From the IMG/VR virus record IMGVR_UViG_3300029305_010407: a stretch of DNA of 20,468 nucleotides. One strand, given 5' to 3'. Position 1 is the first letter of the stretch; each line of letters starts with the position of its first letter. Source of the stretch: a virus. Position numbers and translations under genes: made by a program. Below the pieces are notes generated by a model. It did no database searches and was not told the DNA's origin. It worked only from the letters and a program-made list of their open reading frames with translations. Shown here piece after piece: positions 1,333 to 14,784 of the stretch.

Positions 1333-1446
1333 CACTTTAACATTAACGGCAAGGTTTTGGAAAATATATTTTGATTTTAAACCCTGATATATATGAAAGG
1401 GTTTCAGAAATTAAGTTTTGAATTGGTGATGGCGGGTGTTAAAGTG
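1333..1446. repeat. Copy A of a ~110-bp imperfect direct repeat with nested inverted repeats
   Basis: 1337-1445 aligns with 6358-6465 at 90/109 identity (manual alignment). Terminal IR CACTTTAACA (1333-1342) / TGTTAAAGTG (1437-1446); inner IR AAACCCT...AGGGTTT around GATATATATGAA. Confidence 0.85.
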
Positions 1447-1447
1447 C

Positions 1448-1675
1448 TTATGGAAATTCACTGGCTATCTCATGATACTTATCGCTAACAATAGCCACAA
1501 AGTCTTTTATATCACCTTTAACCTCCAATGTGTTAAAGTCCACTTCCTTGAGATAACCTATTTCATGTATCTCTTCAGGAGCATCTGTTTCTATAATGCT
1601 GTACCATCCCATTATCATTAACGGTTTATCTTTTGGAAATTTTTTTAAAACTTCAATTGCCTCGCCACAATTCAT
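1448..1675 (-). CDS. Small hypothetical protein (75 aa), probably co-transcribed with the lysin
   Basis: Lies 10 bp downstream of the lysin on the same strand with a GGTGA RBS upstream. Soluble composition; 'EAIEVLKKFPKDKPLMI' resembles a common small viral protein start. Confidence 0.65.
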   Translation of the reverse strand: MNCGEAIEVLKKFPKDKPLMIMGWYSIIETDAPEEIHEIGYLKEVDFNTLEVKGDIKDFVAIVSDKYHEIASEFP

Positions 1676-1685
1676 ATTATCACCT

Positions 1686-2516
1686 TTAACTTGAATATAA
1701 ATCTGTAAATATCCAACTTGGATCGTATGCTATAACATATCCATCCTCACACCATATGGATCTAACATTACCTGAAGTTGAATCTGCTACTGCTGCAGGG
1801 TCACGGTTGATCCAGTTTCCTCCTGTATGTTTCTTATGTCTCAGCCTTAATCTGATATGGCCAGTACCGCTGACACGACACTTGACGTGGATGAACTGCA
1901 CGTCATAACCTAAGCTTTTGGCGATACGGTAATATACCTGTCCCCAGTCCACACAGTTGGAGCCTTTACCTTTACTTGCATCATTGATGGTTTGTTTATC
2001 AGTTTTCTGTGAATCAAAGTACTTACTATATAATTTCTTGTTTGCTATAATAGCTAAGGCCTCATCAATGGTATTGCCTTTATAATTGAAGGTTTTGATA
2101 AAGAACTTCATTGTTGTATCTTTATAGTCAGGAAGTTTGGACATCCTATATACTATTGCAGGATATCTTTTATTGGCCTTGATGTAGCTTTCAGTTCTTA
2201 TGGCCATGTCAATGTATTCCGCTTTATCGATTTCCTCTCCGTTCTTTAACGTTACATAATTGGGAAGGAAATCCAAAGACTTGTTATCTTTAATGACGGC
2301 CATTGTATACATTGCCACTAGCTTATCGTTACCTAATTTTTTCGCGCGCTTCTCTATATCTTTGCAACTACCTTTCAGTTTGAGCATTTGGTAGTAATCA
2401 CGTTTCTTATATTGTTTTTTATTCTGGAGTAGCCAGTATGCTATTGAGTTCATAGCCTGGCAGAAACTTGTCCAGCTTATACTATTACTTGACATATTAT
2501 ATAATTTATATATCAT
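1686..2516 (-). CDS. Pseudomurein endoisopeptidase-like endolysin (PeiW/PeiP/PeiR-like; pseudomurein-binding repeat plus transglutaminase-like Cys protease domain)
   Basis: PMBR-like 'EYIDMAIRTESYIKANKRYPAIV'. Putative Cys-His-Asp triad in 'GSNCVDWGQ', 'VKCRVSGTGHIRLRL' and 'NRDPAAV', in the same order and context as PeiW (INCTDACQ...VKCNDGKWYGHY...WDYV, recalled). The true start may be the downstream MSSNSISW. Confidence 0.8.
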   Translation of the reverse strand: MIYKLYNMSSNSISWTSFCQAMNSIAYWLLQNKKQYKKRDYYQMLKLKGSCKDIEKRAKKLGNDKLVAMYTMAVIKDNKSLDFLPNYVTLKNGEEIDKAEYIDMAIRTESYIKANKRYPAIVYRMSKLPDYKDTTMKFFIKTFNYKGNTIDEALAIIANKKLYSKYFDSQKTDKQTINDASKGKGSNCVDWGQVYYRIAKSLGYDVQFIHVKCRVSGTGHIRLRLRHKKHTGGNWINRDPAAVADSTSGNVRSIWCEDGYVIAYDPSWIFTDLYSS

Positions 2517-2637
2517 AGTATTATTATTTTTATATAATATGACTAACAGTATTGCTGTTGTATTACCTACATTATTTTATTATGTTAAATCATAGGTTTT
2601 GTATTAGTTATGCTATATGGTATGGCCGAAATAGGTG

Positions 2638-3337
2638 TTGCAATTCCAGTTGCAACTATTGCAATTTTGTTGCAACTTTATTGCAACTCAGTTGCAACTC
2701 TTGAAATTTTCACCCTGAAAACCACGATCAGAGTTGCAATTAATTGCAATTTTTAATTATTAGTTTGTTCAATATTTTATAGTATTTCTTATAGAAAAAT
2801 GAACAAAGGTAATTTTAAGAAAGTCAAATTTAACCTCTTGAAGAAATTGCAATTTAGTTGCAATTTTTGGGTATATGAATTGCAATTTTGTTGCAATTAA
2901 TTGCAATTCCCAAAATCGAAAAAGTCGGAAAATCCGTATTTGACCCCATTTTAATTGAAGTTGCAATTCATTATTTTAAAGTTGCAATTGTTGCAATATG
3001 TAATACTTACACGAATGTATATAAATTATTGTACTACATTGTGAAACTGCAGAGTAGCAACCGGCACATCTGTATCACTCACCACCCCCATTTTTCGACC
3101 TTATAGTGGCATACCAAGGAAATGTATGTATTGTCTTACAAGTATTACAATAATTAATCATTCCTGCAAGCAAACAATAAACCCTGAAAAATAACATTTA
3201 TCGTTTATTTTTTTTTTAAAATTTCAAAATTAAACAATTTTCAACATAATTTTGAGTTGCAATTTTCAAAAATAGAATTGCAATTCCAGTTGCAACTGTT
3301 GCAATTATTGTTGCAATAAAATTGCAATTGATTGCAA
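2638..3337. repeat. Array of 23 TTGCAA palindromes, mostly spaced 9-12 or 21-22 bp
   Basis: TTGCAA starts at 2638, 2650, 2659, 2670, 2681, 2692, 2734, 2744, 2847, 2858, 2880, 2891, 2901, 2961, 2982, 2991, 3257, 3278, 3290, 3299, 3311, 3322 and 3332. 2638-2675 and 3278-3316 are near-identical direct repeats. Confidence 0.95.
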
Positions 3338-3366
3338 TACTATAAAATATATGATATTATAAAAAT

Positions 3367-4515
3367 ATGTGTAAGGATATTGGAGTGAATGTGATGACCG
3401 AGAAAAAACTCAAAAAGTCAGATGAAAGATTCGGTCTTGAATTTGAAGTCAAGAAAAATACAAAGAATGCAAACAGGATAGGATTCAGCAATAGCTTATT
3501 TGGTGTTGGTGAAAAAGTCTATGTCCTGTCAGAACAGCAGCACTTTGACTTAATCAAGGATATGGATCAAGTGGATGAATACAAGTCTAGAATAAAAGAG
3601 CTTGAAAATAAAATACTCAATAGCTCATCCGACAGTAACGCTGAAGATTTGGAAAAACAGATTCAGGAAAAAGATGAAATGATAAATACTCTAAAGGATA
3701 GAGTTGATTCACTTGGAAAAGAACTTGAATCAAATAAAAGCCAACCTAAAGTCCACGATAAAGATGAAATCGAACAATTAAAAGAAGATTTGGAATCAGA
3801 ACGTGGTCAACATCAATATTGGCAGAATGCATATGAAAATATGATTGAAACATCTGATGGCGTAGTAGCTAGAAATGAAGAGTTGATTAAAGACAATGAG
3901 CAATTGAAAACTGCTAACGATCACATTAACGAAACCAATAAACTCCTCAATGAAAATATTATCGGCTTAAATAAAAATTATGAGGAAACAAAAAGAGAAC
4001 TCCAATCTAATTTTGAAACAAGAGAAAAAGAATTGAAAGAAACTATTAAAAAACAACAATCACATATAGATGAATTAACTAAAAAAGTAGAATCTTTTTC
4101 CGGCTTTAAAGAGTATGTTCCACCTAAAGAACATTACGCTGCACTTCAGGAATTGCAGGAAAAAATAAATGATGCTGAAGCTGAATTAAATAAATTAACT
4201 GCTGAAGTTGACCTTAAGCTTACCAATCAAAAATCAGATATGGAACTTAAGCACACTGAAGAAAAAGCGCAAATGTTACTGGCTTACACTCAAGAGCTCA
4301 ATAGCTATAAGTTAAAGTATAACGAACTAGCTAAGGATTATAATCACTTGTTAGGAGATACAAAGTCATTAACAAGGATTAACACTTTCTTCAATGGCAA
4401 ACATAACACTATCGTTAAAGATAAAGAACCTGTTGAACTTGAAGAAATAGAGGTGGAAAAAGAACCAACGGATACAATAGAGTATGTTCCGAAGGAAGAA
4501 GTTAAGTTAATCTAA
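3367..4515 (+). CDS. Long coiled-coil protein with a small N-terminal beta-rich domain (possibly swapped-hairpin/AbrB-like)
   Basis: About 280 aa of E/K/L/N-rich heptad sequence. The N-terminal 'EFEVKKNTKNANRIGFSNSLFGVGEKVYVLS' resembles AbrB/DUF2080-like hairpins (tentative). The likely start is GTG/ATG near 3391-3394, after GGAGTGA. Confidence 0.75.
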   Translation: MCKDIGVNVMTEKKLKKSDERFGLEFEVKKNTKNANRIGFSNSLFGVGEKVYVLSEQQHFDLIKDMDQVDEYKSRIKELENKILNSSSDSNAEDLEKQIQEKDEMINTLKDRVDSLGKELESNKSQPKVHDKDEIEQLKEDLESERGQHQYWQNAYENMIETSDGVVARNEELIKDNEQLKTANDHINETNKLLNENIIGLNKNYEETKRELQSNFETREKELKETIKKQQSHIDELTKKVESFSGFKEYVPPKEHYAALQELQEKINDAEAELNKLTAEVDLKLTNQKSDMELKHTEEKAQMLLAYTQELNSYKLKYNELAKDYNHLLGDTKSLTRINTFFNGKHNTIVKDKEPVELEEIEVEKEPTDTIEYVPKEEVKLI

Positions 4516-4546
4516 TCTCCAAGCCCAACACTAACATTAACGTTAG

Positions 4547-5098
4547 CTATTCTTTATCTTGTATTGATTCTAGTATCTCATCCATTAATTTGGATGCGTC
4601 AATATTATTTATTTCTCCAATCTCGTATTCAATAATGGAACCCACGATTTTATTTAGTGATCTATCCTGAATAGCTGACACTATCCTTAATTTTTTGTGA
4701 GTATCTGGATCTACTTTAACATTAATTCTTTTTCTTGGATTTCCTTTATCCAATAGCTTATCGTTAATGTCATAAGCAGTATTATCAATATCAGTCTGTT
4801 TTAACCAATCAAAGCCATCATTATTCTCAAATGATTCTTTAACATATTCGACAATATCCAATCCTTCAATCCTCTCTTCTAATATTGAAGTTGCAATTGT
4901 TTCTAATGTTGTATCTTTTGCAGTAGCGATTATTTTTAATGTCTTATGTGTATTGGGAAATAATTTAACTGTTATTTGTTTTTTAGGAAGTTCATTCATT
5001 TCATTCAGATAATCTTCACGTACCTGCTTCATTTTGTTTTCACGCTGCACTTGCTTTTGAATCAATTCATCAAATTTATCATTTGTCATGTTATGCAC
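4547..5098 (-). CDS. Tandem ribbon-helix-helix DNA-binding protein (two RHH-like repeats)
   Basis: Internal duplication 'KQITVKLFPNTHKTLKIIATAKDTTLETIATSILEERI' and 'KRINVKVDPDTHKKLRIVSAIQDRSLNKIVGSIIEYEI', each an alternating beta-strand followed by two helices, as in CopG/HicB-C/ParG-like RHH domains. Confidence 0.75.
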   Translation of the reverse strand: MHNMTNDKFDELIQKQVQRENKMKQVREDYLNEMNELPKKQITVKLFPNTHKTLKIIATAKDTTLETIATSILEERIEGLDIVEYVKESFENNDGFDWLKQTDIDNTAYDINDKLLDKGNPRKRINVKVDPDTHKKLRIVSAIQDRSLNKIVGSIIEYEIGEINNIDASKLMDEILESIQDKE

Positions 5099-5118
5099 CT
5101 TTAATTAAATTATGTTAT

Positions 5119-5220
5119 TACATTATAATGTAGTTACATTTATATTTACTTACATATAATATATTATTGATTGTATATAAAACTATCCCGAGATACTAAA
5201 ATTCCATGTATCTTAGGATA
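5119..5220. promoter_or_regulatory. Divergent promoter region with operator-like palindromes between the RHH and GIY-YIG genes
   Basis: Perfect 14-bp palindrome TACATTATAATGTA (5119-5132). Imperfect 13-bp IR TATCCCGAGATAC (5184-5196) / GTATCTTAGGATA (5208-5220). Several TATA-like tracts. Confidence 0.5.
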
Positions 5221-6210: not shown

Positions 6211-6353
6211 TTATTTATTGTAGTTTTTACACATCAACATTAACGATTGCAATTTCATTACTGGAAAAATATATGTCTTACTAGAATTAAAATCTGAGGT
6301 TTTCAATATGATAATTTTAGTAGATAAACAATAGCTGTTAATATAATCGATTC

Positions 6354-6465
6354 AACATTAACATTAACGGAAGGGTTTTTGAAATTCAATTCTGGATTTA
6401 AACCGTGATATATATGAAAGGGTTTCAAAAATAAGTTTTCAATTGATAATGGCTGCCGTTAATGT
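6354..6465. repeat. Copy B of the ~110-bp imperfect direct repeat
   Basis: 83% identical to 1337-1445. It has its own perfect terminal IR ACATTAACGG (6361-6370) / CCGTTAATGT (6456-6465). Like copy A, it lies immediately after the stop codon of a minus-strand gene. Confidence 0.85.
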
Positions 6466-6973: not shown

Positions 6974-7134
6974 TAAGGATTTGGAGTCAATAAACTCTTA
7001 GCAGAAGATGGACGTGAAGAAAAACAATTAAAACTTCACATAATCTTCAAATGAGATTTTAATATTCTTTTATCCCTACACGCTCTCTAAACGAAAGGGT
7101 CCGATATATATTTAGGAGTTTATATGAAATTCGC

Positions 7135-8061
7135 TTATGCCCTGAATGTACCTGTAATTATACGGTTAGGTGCATTCATTAAAACACCGACAGAAGACAA
7201 GATAAAGAGTTTTGTGTACATTGGAAGTTCGTCACGAATATCTTTCCTCATAAATTCAATTAACGGATAGAAATCATACATCTCACCGTCAGGACCTAAA
7301 GGTGCAACGGTTGTTCCTGTAGTCCTTGAGTATAACAATTTCATTCCTGGATTTATGTAGTCCATACCAATGTAGGTCTTATCGCCCATTTCAGAACCAC
7401 CATCACAGACAGCAGTTCCAAGAATATCTATATTGTCCACACCATAGTAGCTTTGAATATGTTCTACTGGTTCGACTTGTCTGTTAGAAGAGAATAAATC
7501 AGACTTTAATGTAGTGAGAGACTTATAGCTAACAGCCATACTATTTAAGTTGGTAAAGCTTCCTGCTGATTCTTTGAATTTCTCTTGAGCTTTAAGGATG
7601 GTCATACCAGTATCGTCACCAGATTCAAAATCATATTTCGCAACTTTGTTTGAATTGGTGATCATATCAATAGCTGCTTTTTCAATACTTCTTCCGATTA
7701 ATATGCCCACGTCTTGGAGCATATCATTAACGGAGATTAAATTGGAATCTAACATTTGTGCTGAAACGTTTAAGACACCACCAATAGTGTCAATGGAGAT
7801 TGTTTCACTGATTGGTTTTCTAACGTTTAATTCTTGAAGGGTTGCGCCCGGTGCAATGTCTTTGGCCTCACCAAGCACACCTTTTTGAATAGCTTCCTCA
7901 ATATTAACTCTCTGAGACATGTAAGTGTAATATTGGCTATTTTCTTCAATTTCTTGCTTTGGTAGTAATCTGGTGAATTTCATCCACTTTGCAGAAGTGT
8001 CTGCAACAATCTGTGCCATTACTTCATTTTGTACTTTAGCATCATTTCCTTTAGTTAACAT
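7135..8061 (-). CDS. HK97-fold major capsid/encapsulin-like shell protein, paralog 2
   Basis: 308 aa with an AGGAGG RBS. The pattern 'EAKDIAPGATLQEL...TISIDTIGGVLNVSAQMLDS...DMLQDVGILIGRSIEKAAIDMI' matches the E-loop, P-domain strand and spine helix order of HK97-fold proteins. Clear paralog of 8074..9012. Confidence 0.72.
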   Translation of the reverse strand: MLTKGNDAKVQNEVMAQIVADTSAKWMKFTRLLPKQEIEENSQYYTYMSQRVNIEEAIQKGVLGEAKDIAPGATLQELNVRKPISETISIDTIGGVLNVSAQMLDSNLISVNDMLQDVGILIGRSIEKAAIDMITNSNKVAKYDFESGDDTGMTILKAQEKFKESAGSFTNLNSMAVSYKSLTTLKSDLFSSNRQVEPVEHIQSYYGVDNIDILGTAVCDGGSEMGDKTYIGMDYINPGMKLLYSRTTGTTVAPLGPDGEMYDFYPLIEFMRKDIRDELPMYTKLFILSSVGVLMNAPNRIITGTFRA

Positions 8062-9603: not shown

Positions 9604-9623
9604 ACATTAACATTAACATTAAT
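9604..9623. repeat. Tandem ACATTA x3 hexamer box
   Basis: ACATTAACATTAACATTAATG. Related tandem boxes occur at 1337-1348, 4527-4546, 6231-6245, 6354-6370 and 6891-6900, all intergenic. Confidence 0.6.
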
Positions 9624-12100: not shown

Positions 12101-14784
12101 TGGCACTTCCAATTGATTTTCCAAGTTCTCCATATGAAGTCTTAGATCCAGATAATAGATGGTTTCCAGATGCAAAAACTGTTGAAAAAAATTTCAATCT
12201 TATTCCTCCATTGGTAGATAAAATTAGACGTGATGTTAAAGAATGGAGAGACAATGATTATGAAGGTGCAAGTGAAACTACTAAATCCTTACTTCATTTC
12301 TGGTTTGAAGAAGAACATTTTATTGAAAATGTAAATAACGATCCTTTTGAATTTAAATATTACTTTGCTCAAAGAGAATCTGTTGAAACAATTATATATC
12401 TTCATGAAATAGCTAATGTTGAAGATAAACATGATTTATTGAAATATGATAGCTCAGGAATTATTAAAGCTGAAGATTTTCCTGAGTCATGGGCTCGTTT
12501 TGTAGTTAAGATGGCGACTGGTAGTGGAAAAACAAAAGTTTTAAGTTTAATTTTAGTCTGGTCGTTTTTCCATAAAACTTATGAAAATAATTCAGATTTA
12601 TCTAGAAATTTTTTAGTTATTACTCCAAACATTATTGTGCTGGATAGAATCCGTTCTGATTTTGAAGGTCTTAAAACATTCTTTTTAGACCCAATGGTTC
12701 CTGAAGATGGGTATCATAGTAGGAACTGGAAAACTGATTTTCAATTAGATGTTCATATTCAAGATAATGTAAATCAAATAAATAAAACAGGAAATATCTT
12801 TTTAACAAATATTCATAGAGTTTATGATAGTAAGTATACTGAACCATCATTTGAAGATGAGGATACAACAGGTTATTTCTTAGGTAAGAAAGCAAAAGAT
12901 GTTAAAGAAGACCATGTTGATTTAGGAGATATTGTAAGAGATATTGATGAGTTAATGATTTTAAATGATGAGGCACATCATATCCATGATAGTAAATTAC
13001 AGTGGTTTAAATCAATTGAAGATATCCATTATAACCTTAAACAAAAAGGAAATAAGTTATCTATGCAAGTTGATTTCACCGCTACCCCTAAAGATACAAA
13101 AGGTTTTATTTTTCCACAAACTGTTTCTGATTATCCATTAGTTGAAGCAATTCATCAAAATATTGTAAAACAACCTTTCATTCCAGATGATGAAAGTAGA
13201 GAAAATATGAAAGAAGTTGAATCAGTTAAAGTTGAAGAAAGATATGCAGAGTATCTTCATGTGGGTTATCATGAATGGAAAAAAGCTTATGATGAACATA
13301 TTGGTTTAGGTAAAAAAGCAGTTCTTTTTATAATGGTTGAAGATACTAAAAAATGTGATGCTGTTGCAGAATATCTTGAAAGAACCTATCCTGAATTTGA
13401 AGATTCAGTTTTAACTATTCATACTAATGCAAAGGGCGATTTAAAAGATGGAACAAGTAAGAAAGCTAAAGAAGAATTAGAGATACTTAGAAAAGCAGCT
13501 AATGAAATTGATAGTTTAGATAGTCCATATAAAGTTATTGTTTCTGTATTGGTATTAAAAGAAGGATGGGATGTTAAAAATGTGACAACAATTGTTGGTT
13601 TGAGATCTTTTACTTCTAAATCAAAAATCCTTCCTGAACAAACTTTGGGAAGAGGTTTAAGAAAAATGTATCGAAATACTGAAGAAAGACTCATGATAAT
13701 TGGAACTGAGGCATTTATGGAATTTATTGAATCTATTAAAAGTGAGGGGGTTAAATTGGGTAAAACTCATATCGGTCCTACTGGGCCAGCACATGCAATG
13801 CGTATTGAGGTTGATTTAGATAATGAAAATAAAGATATTGATGAATTAGATATTTTAATCCCAGTATTGGAGCCTTCATTTTATAAAGATTATATTAAAC
13901 TTAAACAGATGGATGTTAGCAAATTTAATGTAAATAAGTTTGAGATAATTAATTTCGGTGAAGATAAACTTAAAGAAATTAATTTTGTCCACATTATTGA
14001 CGATGATAAAAGAGAAACATTAACATTAAAAGATGGCAACACTATCAACTATAGATCAATGCTCAAATATTACGCTGGAGTTATATTAAAAGAAACAAAG
14101 TTGGTTTCAGGTAATGCAACAGTTTATGGTAAATTAAAAGACTTTATTTCAAATTATTTATTTGAAGAGCCTGTTGATTTAGAAGATCCTAATATTATCA
14201 AAAATGTTTCCAGGAGAGAAGTTTCTAAAACAATTCTTGATACATTCATATATTATGTAAACAATATCACTACCTCTATTGTTTCAGAACCAAAAATAAT
14301 GACTTGGAATTCCGTAGCTGATACAAATCCATTTATTGTTAAAGAACAAGGATATGTTGTACCTCAAAAGTCTGTTTTTAATAAAATTATTGGAGATAGT
14401 GGTTTTGAATTAAGTTTTGCTGAAAAATTAGAATGGTGCAGTGATATTGTTTCTTATACAAAAAATTATCTGGCAGTTCAATATCATATTCAGTATCAAG
14501 ATAGAAATGGAAAAATTTCAAAATATTATCCTGATTTCTTAGTTAAGACCTCTGATACTAAAATATATGTAATTGAAACAAAAGGTAATGCTGATTTGGA
14601 TGTTCCATTAAAACTTGCTCGATTGAAAGAATGGTGTAGTGATGTGAACTCTCAACAAAATCAGATTACATATATCCCATTATATGTTGAACAAGAGAAA
14701 TATGAAAAACAACCAATTAATTCTTTCAATGAGTTAATTAGATTGTTTGAACATGAATTAGATTTCATGATTAATAAGGATTAA
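12100..14784 (+). CDS. res: Type III restriction endonuclease subunit (SF2 helicase-like ATPase plus PD-(D/E)xK nuclease)
   Basis: Walker A 'KMATGSGKT', Walker B 'DEAHH', 'FTATP', 'LKEGWDV', motif VI 'EQTLGRGLR', and C-terminal 'YYPDFLV...VIETKG'. Translationally coupled to mod. Confidence 0.92.
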   Translation: MALPIDFPSSPYEVLDPDNRWFPDAKTVEKNFNLIPPLVDKIRRDVKEWRDNDYEGASETTKSLLHFWFEEEHFIENVNNDPFEFKYYFAQRESVETIIYLHEIANVEDKHDLLKYDSSGIIKAEDFPESWARFVVKMATGSGKTKVLSLILVWSFFHKTYENNSDLSRNFLVITPNIIVLDRIRSDFEGLKTFFLDPMVPEDGYHSRNWKTDFQLDVHIQDNVNQINKTGNIFLTNIHRVYDSKYTEPSFEDEDTTGYFLGKKAKDVKEDHVDLGDIVRDIDELMILNDEAHHIHDSKLQWFKSIEDIHYNLKQKGNKLSMQVDFTATPKDTKGFIFPQTVSDYPLVEAIHQNIVKQPFIPDDESRENMKEVESVKVEERYAEYLHVGYHEWKKAYDEHIGLGKKAVLFIMVEDTKKCDAVAEYLERTYPEFEDSVLTIHTNAKGDLKDGTSKKAKEELEILRKAANEIDSLDSPYKVIVSVLVLKEGWDVKNVTTIVGLRSFTSKSKILPEQTLGRGLRKMYRNTEERLMIIGTEAFMEFIESIKSEGVKLGKTHIGPTGPAHAMRIEVDLDNENKDIDELDILIPVLEPSFYKDYIKLKQMDVSKFNVNKFEIINFGEDKLKEINFVHIIDDDKRETLTLKDGNTINYRSMLKYYAGVILKETKLVSGNATVYGKLKDFISNYLFEEPVDLEDPNIIKNVSRREVSKTILDTFIYYVNNITTSIVSEPKIMTWNSVADTNPFIVKEQGYVVPQKSVFNKIIGDSGFELSFAEKLEWCSDIVSYTKNYLAVQYHIQYQDRNGKISKYYPDFLVKTSDTKIYVIETKGNADLDVPLKLARLKEWCSDVNSQQNQITYIPLYVEQEKYEKQPINSFNELIRLFEHELDFMINKD

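Follow-up and report, generated by a model that had tools for sequence, protein, structure and literature searches.

A conserved array of phased RTTGCAAY palindromes in tailed viruses of Methanobrevibacter: a candidate docking platform for the neighbouring coiled-coil protein

The DNA analyzed here (the window; 20,468 nucleotides) is part of the genome (about 35 kb) of a vir323-like tailed virus of Methanobrevibacter. The closest named record is Caudoviricetes sp. vir323 (34,179 bp; circular; host, Methanobacteriales; goat faecal enrichment), with 83% identity over positions 1600-4600, and a fragment from a roe deer Methanobrevibacter MAG is 96% identical to the window; the contig of the latter begins inside the array of TTGCAA sites that is the subject of this report. 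The open reading frames of the window include two HK97-like capsid genes, a collagen-like tail fibre, a type III-like restriction-modification pair, a GIY-YIG/HTH nuclease, a tandem ribbon-helix-helix (RHH) protein of 183 amino acids (4547-5098, minus strand) and the lysis gene pei for a pseudomurein endoisopeptidase (Pei; 1686-2516, minus strand), which is divergent from the array and is kept in relatives with and without the array. On the other side of the array lies the gene for a 382-amino-acid coiled-coil protein (3367-4515, plus strand; translation probably starts at the ATG at 3394, which follows GGAGTG). The divergent gap between these two genes (850 bp) is the largest conserved non-coding region of the viral genome. 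Its GC content (27-29%) is little under that of the surroundings, and no stretch of at least 90% AT was seen there.

In this gap, 23 copies of TTGCAA are found at positions 2638-3337, all of them where a first-pass annotation had placed them, as compared with about 0.2 expected per 700 bp from the base composition. The window as a whole holds 36 copies (11.4 ± 3.0 in shuffled sequences; none of 100 shuffles reached 36). The spacings between neighbours within a cluster were the same on recomputation as first described (9-12 or 21-22 bp), and the pairwise distances gave a best single period of 10.6-10.8 bp with a resultant of 0.80. The real unit is the 8-bp palindrome RTTGCAAY, since R on the left and Y on the right were found in all 237 sites of ten genomes, with W preferred one position further out. 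All 23 sites in the window are of this form and fall into five clusters of 6, 2, 5, 3 and 7 sites. The strict twofold symmetry of RTTGCAAY points to a symmetric dimer as the candidate reader.

The six sites of cluster 1 (2638-2697; spacings of 12, 9, 11, 11 and 11 bp) are each kept in 7-9 of 9 relatives; about 18 bp separate them from a conserved block (2606-2625) that is TATA-like and faces pei. Cluster 2 (2734-2749) consists of two sites that form the perfect 16-bp palindrome TTGCAATTAATTGCAA, conserved in the relatives with a one-base change of the spacer in some. It is followed by a conserved inverted repeat, TTGTTCA ... TGAACAA (2765-2806), of which the centre is AT-rich and variable, and which persists even in distant relatives with a different repeat word. 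In cluster 3 (2847-2906; five sites with spacings of 11, 22, 11 and 10 bp), each site is kept in all nine relatives, and the 16-bp palindrome occurs for the second time, as had been noted previously; GTTGCAATTAATTGCAATT was found at 2733 and 2890, and ACCCTGAAAA, also noted before, at 2712 and 3181. Cluster 4 (2961-2996) has three sites and ends about 20 bp ahead of a central TATA-like block. Cluster 5 (3257-3337) has seven sites, and its copy number differs among relatives by units of 11 or 22 bp. The two outer clusters are direct repeats of each other, as first described (a 29-nt repeat, 2638-2666 versus 3278-3306, 97% identical). That the last cluster adjoins a TATA-like sequence was borne out as well: the final site ends at 3337, 3 bp ahead of the box TATAAAATATA (3341-3351, plus strand), which is invariant in close relatives and is the putative promoter of the coiled-coil gene.

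Between clusters 4 and 5 lies a central element without sites (2997-3256), with conserved blocks that comprise a TATA-like block (3017-3028), a conserved stretch (3108-3176) and a run of ten T (3208-3217). Blocks of this element are common to the window and the distant relatives L064 and L067, and the part at 3132-3176 is similar to a non-coding element of host chromosomes. An attP site in the central element is not supported, as no integrase was found and the host matches are mostly T/A runs plus one short shared non-coding element. Structured RNA was also rejected for this element: the RNAalifold consensus of 12 sequences gave -5.3 for the plus strand and 0 for the minus strand, with no covariation. 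No Rfam families or tRNAs were found in the array region. The annotation of vir323 places a CDS of 70 amino acids inside the array; this CDS is probably spurious, because neither the position nor the length of the open frames is constant across ten relatives and a 1-nt indel falls inside the CDS.

At least ten relatives hold 22-25 sites, with the five blocks arranged alike with respect to the gene start; the 382-amino-acid product is only 62-73% identical among relatives with this conserved layout. Across ten genomes, the hexamer columns were 94.1% identical to the window, as compared with 74.8% for the other columns and 76.5% for the spacers within clusters, and none of 10,000 circular shifts attained the observed conservation of the hexamer columns. 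Judged by this column-wise conservation, the sites of the array are under selection one by one. A pattern of three phased sites was found in 11 of 101 Methanobrevibacter genomes; ten of these matches are virus-like contigs, and the remaining genome, G090, has one isolated triple whose spacing differs. With the reversed pattern as a control, no match was obtained. When IMG/VR was scanned for the triple-site pattern, chance single triples swamped the result at that database size, and the two dense matches were a coding collagen-like repeat and an unrelated repeat region. A literature search for the TTGCAA word and for vir323 found nothing on the array. The array is real, selected and specific to one group of viruses, and it very probably serves as a protein-binding platform.

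The phasing by itself would also suit a chromatin or shape element, in which periodic GC steps flanked by A/T position histones or bend the DNA with no specific reader. Methanobrevibacter possesses histones, such an element would be consistent with a period of about 10.7 bp and a GC step in an A/T context, and a class III relative has phased A-tracts. However, the 8-bp word is invariant, the spacer positions +8 to +10 are mixed rather than AA/TT-rich at the half-turn offset, the relatives swap in other exact words instead of a degenerate periodic signal, and the array is gained and lost with one gene. Histone positioning, one of the options of the first-pass annotation, thus fits poorly with exact words that are kept while the spacers vary, and we consider it very improbable.

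As for the protein that would read the sites, the product of the coiled-coil gene consists of a small beta-containing head (about residues 19-58), about 290 amino acids of helix or coiled coil, and a conserved C-terminal part. In the AF2 model, short strands were predicted at residues 24-27 and 50-53 and helices at 56-351; the pLDDT of the head was 56-77 in the full-length model and 56 when the head was folded alone. The protein had no Pfam match at E <= 0.01, and only generic coiled-coil matches, far under the cut-offs, were obtained with NCBIfam. A profile search of the head against solved structures gave nothing significant (one match at chance level), and the fold comparison with the protein atlas gave only leads under 0.8; an AbrB-like fold may be taken as a tentative guess for the head. 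Two distant homologues (35-38% identity) with upstream DNA have there the inverted repeat TGTTCAAT...ATTGAACA, the conserved central element and phased repeats up to a TATA-like box; the repeat word is YTTGCAAR in one of them and TTTGAAAAAT at 11 bp in the other, and pei is the left neighbour in neither. In all three motif classes, a phased repeat adjoins the corresponding TATA-like box, and control of the adjacent promoter by the array is likely. Across the family, the identity of the head drops abruptly from about 0.75 to about 0.25, and that of the rest of the protein stays level (0.61 and 0.60), which suggests that the head occurs as discrete specificity types. The three repeat words pair with three head types, three motif classes being all that this pairing comprises. 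The gene also occurs in a host chromosome, with the same type of head, in a defence island where its neighbours are cas1, a TIR/SEFIR gene and a restriction-modification pair; this copy has no array at all. The protein can therefore exist without the array, and its dependence on the array is not strict. We regard the 382-amino-acid protein, with moderate confidence, as the best candidate for the protein that binds the array.

The first-pass annotation had named the tandem RHH protein as another potential binder. RHH dimers such as ParR, omega and MetJ recognize short palindromes through a single major groove, and neighbouring dimers stack about one helical turn apart. A centromere of the ParR/parC type might accordingly be imagined, in which the tandem protein, as a single-chain dimer, binds each palindrome and forms a segregation complex, with some other role left to the coiled-coil protein. 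In the tandem protein, one strand (ITVKL) resembles the other (INVKV); the protein is encoded in all array-bearing genomes, and it has a weak match to the RHH segregation protein PrgO (21 bits, with a cut-off of 100). Its gene is, however, separable from the array, as it occurs without the array in two integrated relatives (G049 provirus 2 and G075:C79) and also in the chromosomal island; the promoter of the RHH gene itself has TTACAT words, not TTGCAA, and is conserved from the virus to the chromosomal copy; and the gene is convergent to the coiled-coil gene, with no shared operon and with neither ParM nor ParA found. Because it is present without the array and has TTACAT in its own promoter instead, the tandem RHH protein is an unlikely binder, and a centromere of this type is quite improbable. 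The GIY-YIG/HTH protein was rejected as the binder, its gene being absent from several array-bearing genomes. The control region of the wHTH gene g37 has no TTGCAA site.

The distribution of the array among relatives bears on its role. Each of the six complete genomes that carry the array is a stand-alone contig (34,043-36,922 bp); one is a circular record, and another has a terminal overlap of 141 bp. No match to a tyrosine integrase was found in these six genomes, and no match to the resolvase, ParA or ParM families in the five of them that were searched. ParA (PF13614) matched on host contigs only and not on vir323, G058:C4, G026:C25, G023:C24 or G033:C162, and ParM (PF06406) had no match in the five array-bearing genomes, with the control genomes giving no match either; Pfam scans of the ORFs in the window likewise yielded no ParM. 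Homologues of the capsid gene (85-100% identity) were present in 42 of the 101 genomes, and the DNA past the capsid gene was read in 27 further relatives (capsid identity, 85-96%). The array and the coiled-coil gene were jointly missing in all 27 of these, with no more than three TTGCAA per 800 bp, and only two retained the RHH gene. The closest 18 have the order capsid, h132, a few hundred bases and pei; the region differs in the others. Two proviruses in the closed genome G049 keep, beside pei, only a remnant of about 50 bp of the 3' end of the coiled-coil gene. Seventeen of the 27 lie in closed chromosomes or in contigs longer than 45 kb, and at least ten have an ORF of 376-400 amino acids resembling a tyrosine recombinase at provirus distance. 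The integrated relatives have the same pei, capsid and terminase genes at 84-96% identity, and three MAGs each contain one virus of either kind. A search of related elements for the combination of array and coiled-coil gene, which had been recommended at the outset, thus found that the layout recurs and that its two parts are acquired and lost as one, being co-inherited and restricted to genomes without an integrase. We infer from this distribution that the array-bearing genomes live as episomes; MAG bins may also hold virion DNA. The cargo in their variable regions (restriction-modification systems and adhesin-like genes) suits a resident element. The initial proposal of a platform for the maintenance of an excised element therefore holds in part. 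Its maintenance part agrees with the selection on single sites, the joint inheritance with the coiled-coil gene and the restriction to stand-alone relatives without an integrase; the excised-element part does not stand, since this is not an island but a virus that assembles as its own contig of 34-37 kb, circular in two cases, and the parts concerning an origin and histones are not supported.

With regard to the origin, the array-bearing genomes have a second array, found only in them, directly after the large terminase gene. It consists of 30-39 copies of (T)ATGGACT, nearly all in one orientation and with alternating spacings of 11 and 12 bp, and in five of the six genomes a 100-bp stretch of 88-93% AT lies beside it. 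Then follow two small genes (g43 and g44) and a satellite group of three to four RTTGCAAY sites. The integrated relatives have neither the ATGGACT array nor its two genes despite a terminase of 92% identity, which disfavours the reading of this array as a packaging site; the arrangement argues for a putative replicon of plasmid type. A plasmid-type replication origin has also to be considered for the TTGCAA array itself. The array and the central element would then form an episomal origin, and the coiled-coil protein would be an initiator or would recruit the host replication machinery, as in EBNA1/oriP. Such an origin would be in keeping with the extent of the conserved non-coding region and its low GC content, with the inverted repeat and core that are kept where the repeat word changes, and with the restriction of the cassette to genomes without an integrase, a contrast to the integrated relatives that fits a plasmid-type origin equally as well as maintenance by other means. 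Moreover, no recognizable replication protein was found in the virus. On the other hand, the sites are 8-bp palindromes and not directional repeats of 17-22 bp, no Rep family is encoded beside the array (Pfam and NCBIfam), and the directional repeats typical of an iteron origin are matched better by the ATGGACT array. The host origin boxes beside cdc6 in three genomes are TTACACTTGAAAT or TTACAGTTGAAA, and none of these was found in the TTGCAA array, so that mimicry of the host origin box (TTACACTTGAAAT, not TTGCAA) was rejected. Orc1/Cdc6 had no match on three virus contigs (G058:C4, G023:C24 and G026:C25). GC skew was of no use as an origin marker, since it follows the direction of transcription and gave no signal. 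The origin reading of the first-pass annotation is thus weakened both by the host box and by the presence, in the same genomes, of an array that is more replicon-like and lies beside a stretch of about 90% AT. The ATGGACT array appears to be the better origin candidate, and an origin in the TTGCAA array is unlikely.

The array might instead be purely an operator array for a regulator of the carrier state, be it the coiled-coil protein or some other viral factor. The lysis gene, the coiled-coil gene, the central promoter and, via the satellite cluster, the late region would be silenced by this regulator, which would have no role in segregation or replication. Three of the blocks each end 3-20 bp upstream of a conserved TATA-like box, the juxtaposition of repeat and box recurs in all three motif classes, and the discrete head types recall the immunity types of phages. 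In vir323 and G058, the satellite group lies after g44 and before a TATA-rich stretch upstream of the portal gene; in three genomes, however, a restriction-modification insert parts the cluster from the portal gene, and the cluster still stays beside g44. Furthermore, the integrated relatives manage without the array and its gene, so that the array is not needed for ordinary control of the lysis and late genes, and 23 sites in 700 bp with a copy number drifting by units of 11 or 22 bp would be unusual for a simple operator. We therefore consider a purely transcriptional role rather unlikely.

The reading that we prefer is a cis-acting docking platform for the coiled-coil protein, which would serve both the control of the protein's own promoter and the maintenance of the episome; we give this combined reading an even chance. 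Its parts differ in strength: a role of some kind in episome maintenance is probable, if slightly less so than promoter control, and within that role, segregation or tethering is about as probable as replication. According to this docking model, dimers of twofold symmetry would bind each RTTGCAAY and, owing to the one-turn spacing, would line up on the same DNA face in five blocks, each bound block being a short protein-DNA filament. Binding at the block that touches the TATA/BRE region would result in auto-regulation of the coiled-coil gene, as suggested by the same juxtaposition in the three motif classes, and the promoters would presumably be repressed by the bound protein. The complex formed there would also take in the blocks beside the remaining promoter-like boxes, one of which faces the lysis gene. 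Should the 382-amino-acid protein be the binder, its long stalks may bridge the five blocks and the satellite group, and the conserved C-terminal part could fix the complex to a cell structure. The complex would then be a centromere-like or tethering device by which the genome of about 35 kb is kept as a free episome instead of integrating, with replication provided by the second lineage-specific module (the ATGGACT repeats, the AT-rich stretch and the two small genes). Because the cassette replaces integration in the sister lineages, maintenance of the free genome is the most likely net role. Segregation is the least supported step, with no known motor or anchor partner. A more far-reaching version is possible, and we put it forward tentatively: the array and the coiled-coil protein would constitute a motor-free, single-protein device for episome maintenance (a tether like EBNA1-oriP or RacA) through which, together with the ATGGACT module, a lineage of integrating proviruses would become a plasmid-like Methanobrevibacter prophage. 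The two modules would be a minimal natural kit of replicon plus stability.

In bacteria, plasmid-like prophages are well known together with the devices that maintain them; to our knowledge, they have hardly been described for archaeal tailed viruses, and we know of none in gut or rumen methanogens. The two close sister lineages differ by module swaps, an integrase-like gene in the one versus two repeat-array modules without an integrase in the other, and the swap provides a testable hypothesis for how an archaeal virus moves from inside the chromosome to beside it. If the docking reading is true, the cassette would be a partition or tethering system with no recognizable NTPase. Methanobrevibacter is the main methane producer of ruminants and humans and, as far as we know, is still without genetic tools; for this genus, the two modules together would then offer a candidate shuttle-vector backbone. 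In addition, the pairing of discrete head types with distinct repeat words would offer a small natural code for how a protein recognizes DNA.

Membership was found in none of the known families that could be tested from the sequences (no KfrA homology, no ParM, ParA or Rep, and no ORB box), and the comparison with known systems is therefore one of function and form. In EBNA1-oriP (the family of repeats) and LANA-TR, one viral protein and about 20 palindromic sites keep a free episome without a motor, much as a viral protein and a palindrome array are proposed here as the alternative to integration; the proteins of those systems are eukaryotic and unrelated, and tethering to host chromatin is here only possible. 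RacA of Bacillus subtilis combines a DNA-binding domain at the N-terminus with a long coiled coil and an anchor at the C-terminus, and it recognizes about 25 palindromic, centromere-like ram sites; together with EBNA1-oriP, it is the analogue for the notion that a single protein and its set of sites may stand in for integration. The small N-terminal head, long coiled coil and conserved C-terminal part of the 382-amino-acid protein resemble this build, whereas RacA has a MerR-like HTH head, its ram sites are spread over hundreds of kilobases, and the system is a chromosomal one for sporulation. The ParR-parC systems of R1 and pB171 (type II partition) have blocks of repeats of about one turn by the adjacent promoter, to which ParR binds cooperatively on one face, so that the blocks act as centromere and operator. 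The phasing of 10.6-10.8 bp and the last block at 3 bp from a TATA-like box are alike in form only; the unit of the array is an 8-bp palindrome, in contrast to the 11-bp direct iterons of parC, the RHH neighbour is separable from the array, and no actin-like ATPase was found. Omega of pSM19035, a small dimer, binds 7-10 contiguous short repeats at several promoters and is both a global repressor and a centromere binder. The satellite RTTGCAAY cluster elsewhere in the viral genome is a similar feature, whereas the partner of omega, the ParA-type ATPase delta, was not found here, and the unit length and the spacing differ. These two systems (ParR-parC and the omega heptads) would rank next after KfrA with its repeated operator, which appears to be the closest functional analogue. 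KfrA of the IncU plasmid RA3 has a globular DNA-binding head, a coiled-coil tail of about 300 residues and a repeated operator (OK) over its own promoter; several adjacent repeats are needed for binding, and the protein has an accessory role in stable plasmid maintenance (PMC7783346). The 382-amino-acid protein differs from KfrA in that it has no sequence homology to it and no Pfam match, and in that a model of low confidence shows beta strands in its head instead of a KorA-like HTH. The 23 palindromic sites of the array are spread over 700 bp, as compared with the five 9-bp repeats of the KfrA operator, and the setting is an archaeal virus in which no ParA/ParB partners were found. Common to both are a globular head with a long coiled-coil tail, as predicted for the viral protein by the AF2 model, and repeats that reach the protein's own promoter, the seven sites of the last block ending at the TATA-like box, with the same arrangement in the two other motif classes, as a candidate operator.

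A second array, built of 30-39 copies of (T)ATGGACT, was found in the genomes of the group of Caudoviricetes sp. vir323, the closest named record; almost all copies have the same orientation, and their spacing alternates between 11 and 12 bp. It follows directly after the large terminase gene, at 32304-32880 of the vir323 stretch L024 and, in the array-bearing virus contigs, at 3806-4500 (G058:C4), 7115-7800 (G026:C25), 26695-27400 (G033:C162) and 28248-28950 (G023:C24). A 100-bp segment of 88-93% AT adjoins it in five of the six genomes. The (T)ATGGACT array is confined to contigs that also carry the TTGCAA array and is not present in the integrated relatives. It is a candidate for an origin of the plasmid type.

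A satellite group of three or four RTTGCAAY sites, spaced at 10-11 bp, was located 7-12 kb away from the main array (L024, 34065-34103; G058:C4, 5806-5827; G026:C25, 5780-5821; G033:C162, 28492-28513; G023:C24, 26901-26944). It lies 30-110 bp past the stop codon of g44, a small gene whose 155-aa product has no family assignment, and it keeps this place even when a restriction-modification insert stands between the group and the portal gene. Several close relatives of the virus occur together in single MAG bins, namely G026 (C25 and C62), G058 (C4, C8, C22 and C37) and G074 (C21, C49 and C136), and such a bin typically holds a single integrase-less genome carrying both arrays, together with at least one integrated copy that lacks them.

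The coiled-coil gene was also found, without any array beside it, in a host-chromosome island adjoining cas1 (G002:C31; L007 / L022 4280-10900), where the copy is 74% identical and has the same head type. The island runs from this gene through a TIR/SEFIR gene, a tandem RHH gene and a MutH-like nuclease gene to a C5 methylase gene, and 81 bp from the 3' end of the coiled-coil gene are duplicated at the flank of the TIR/SEFIR gene. At its C-terminal end, over 74 residues encoded at 4290-4515 of the window, the 382-aa protein is 81% identical to the C-terminal ends of type I HsdS proteins of half size that are encoded on long host contigs (P0101-P0108). In two integrated proviruses, a piece of about 50 bp from the 3' end is the sole remnant of the gene (L218, 16847-16892; L219, 16662-16714). 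This 3' end has the look of a joint at which recombination recurs. Three or four TTACAT/ATGTAA words occur in the promoter region of the tandem RHH gene; the virus (window 5099-5160) and the chromosomal copy (L007, 7565-7625) share this region in conserved form, and it is probably the operator of the RHH protein itself.

Within the site-free central element of the main array, window 3132-3176 (AATAATTAATCATTCCTGCAAGCAAAC) is 87-96% identical over 24-31 bp to intergenic DNA of several Methanobrevibacter chromosomes (contigs L097, L098, L100 and L101), in some genomes twice, and some of the host copies form a small hairpin (TCCTG...CAGGA). This may be an undescribed non-coding element common to host and virus. 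The 70-aa CDS annotated within the array in the public vir323 record (vir323_00030; L001, 10013-10225) is an open frame not conserved among the relatives, and is probably not a gene. Separately, the unrelated viral contig IMGVR_UViG_3300012347_000581 (L141, 1990-2350) has a non-coding region of phased GCTTGCAA words and, after them, a series of TTACA words, with no homologue of the coiled-coil gene within the stretch examined.

The word ACATTAAC is in excess in the window (99 matches with at most one mismatch, against 34 expected). Its tandem form, ACATTAACATTAAC, stands at several gene junctions, among them both copies of the repeat of about 110 bp and, in relatives, a place beside the satellite cluster; places of the two forms are window 1334-1347, 4528-4541, 6231-6244, 6355-6368, 9604-9623 and 14017-14030. 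On Methanobrevibacter chromosomes, repeated TTACACTTGAAAT or TTACAGTTGAAA boxes adjoin the Orc1/Cdc6 gene (L078-L080, stretches beside the host cdc6), and these are likely to be the mini-ORB boxes of the host origin.
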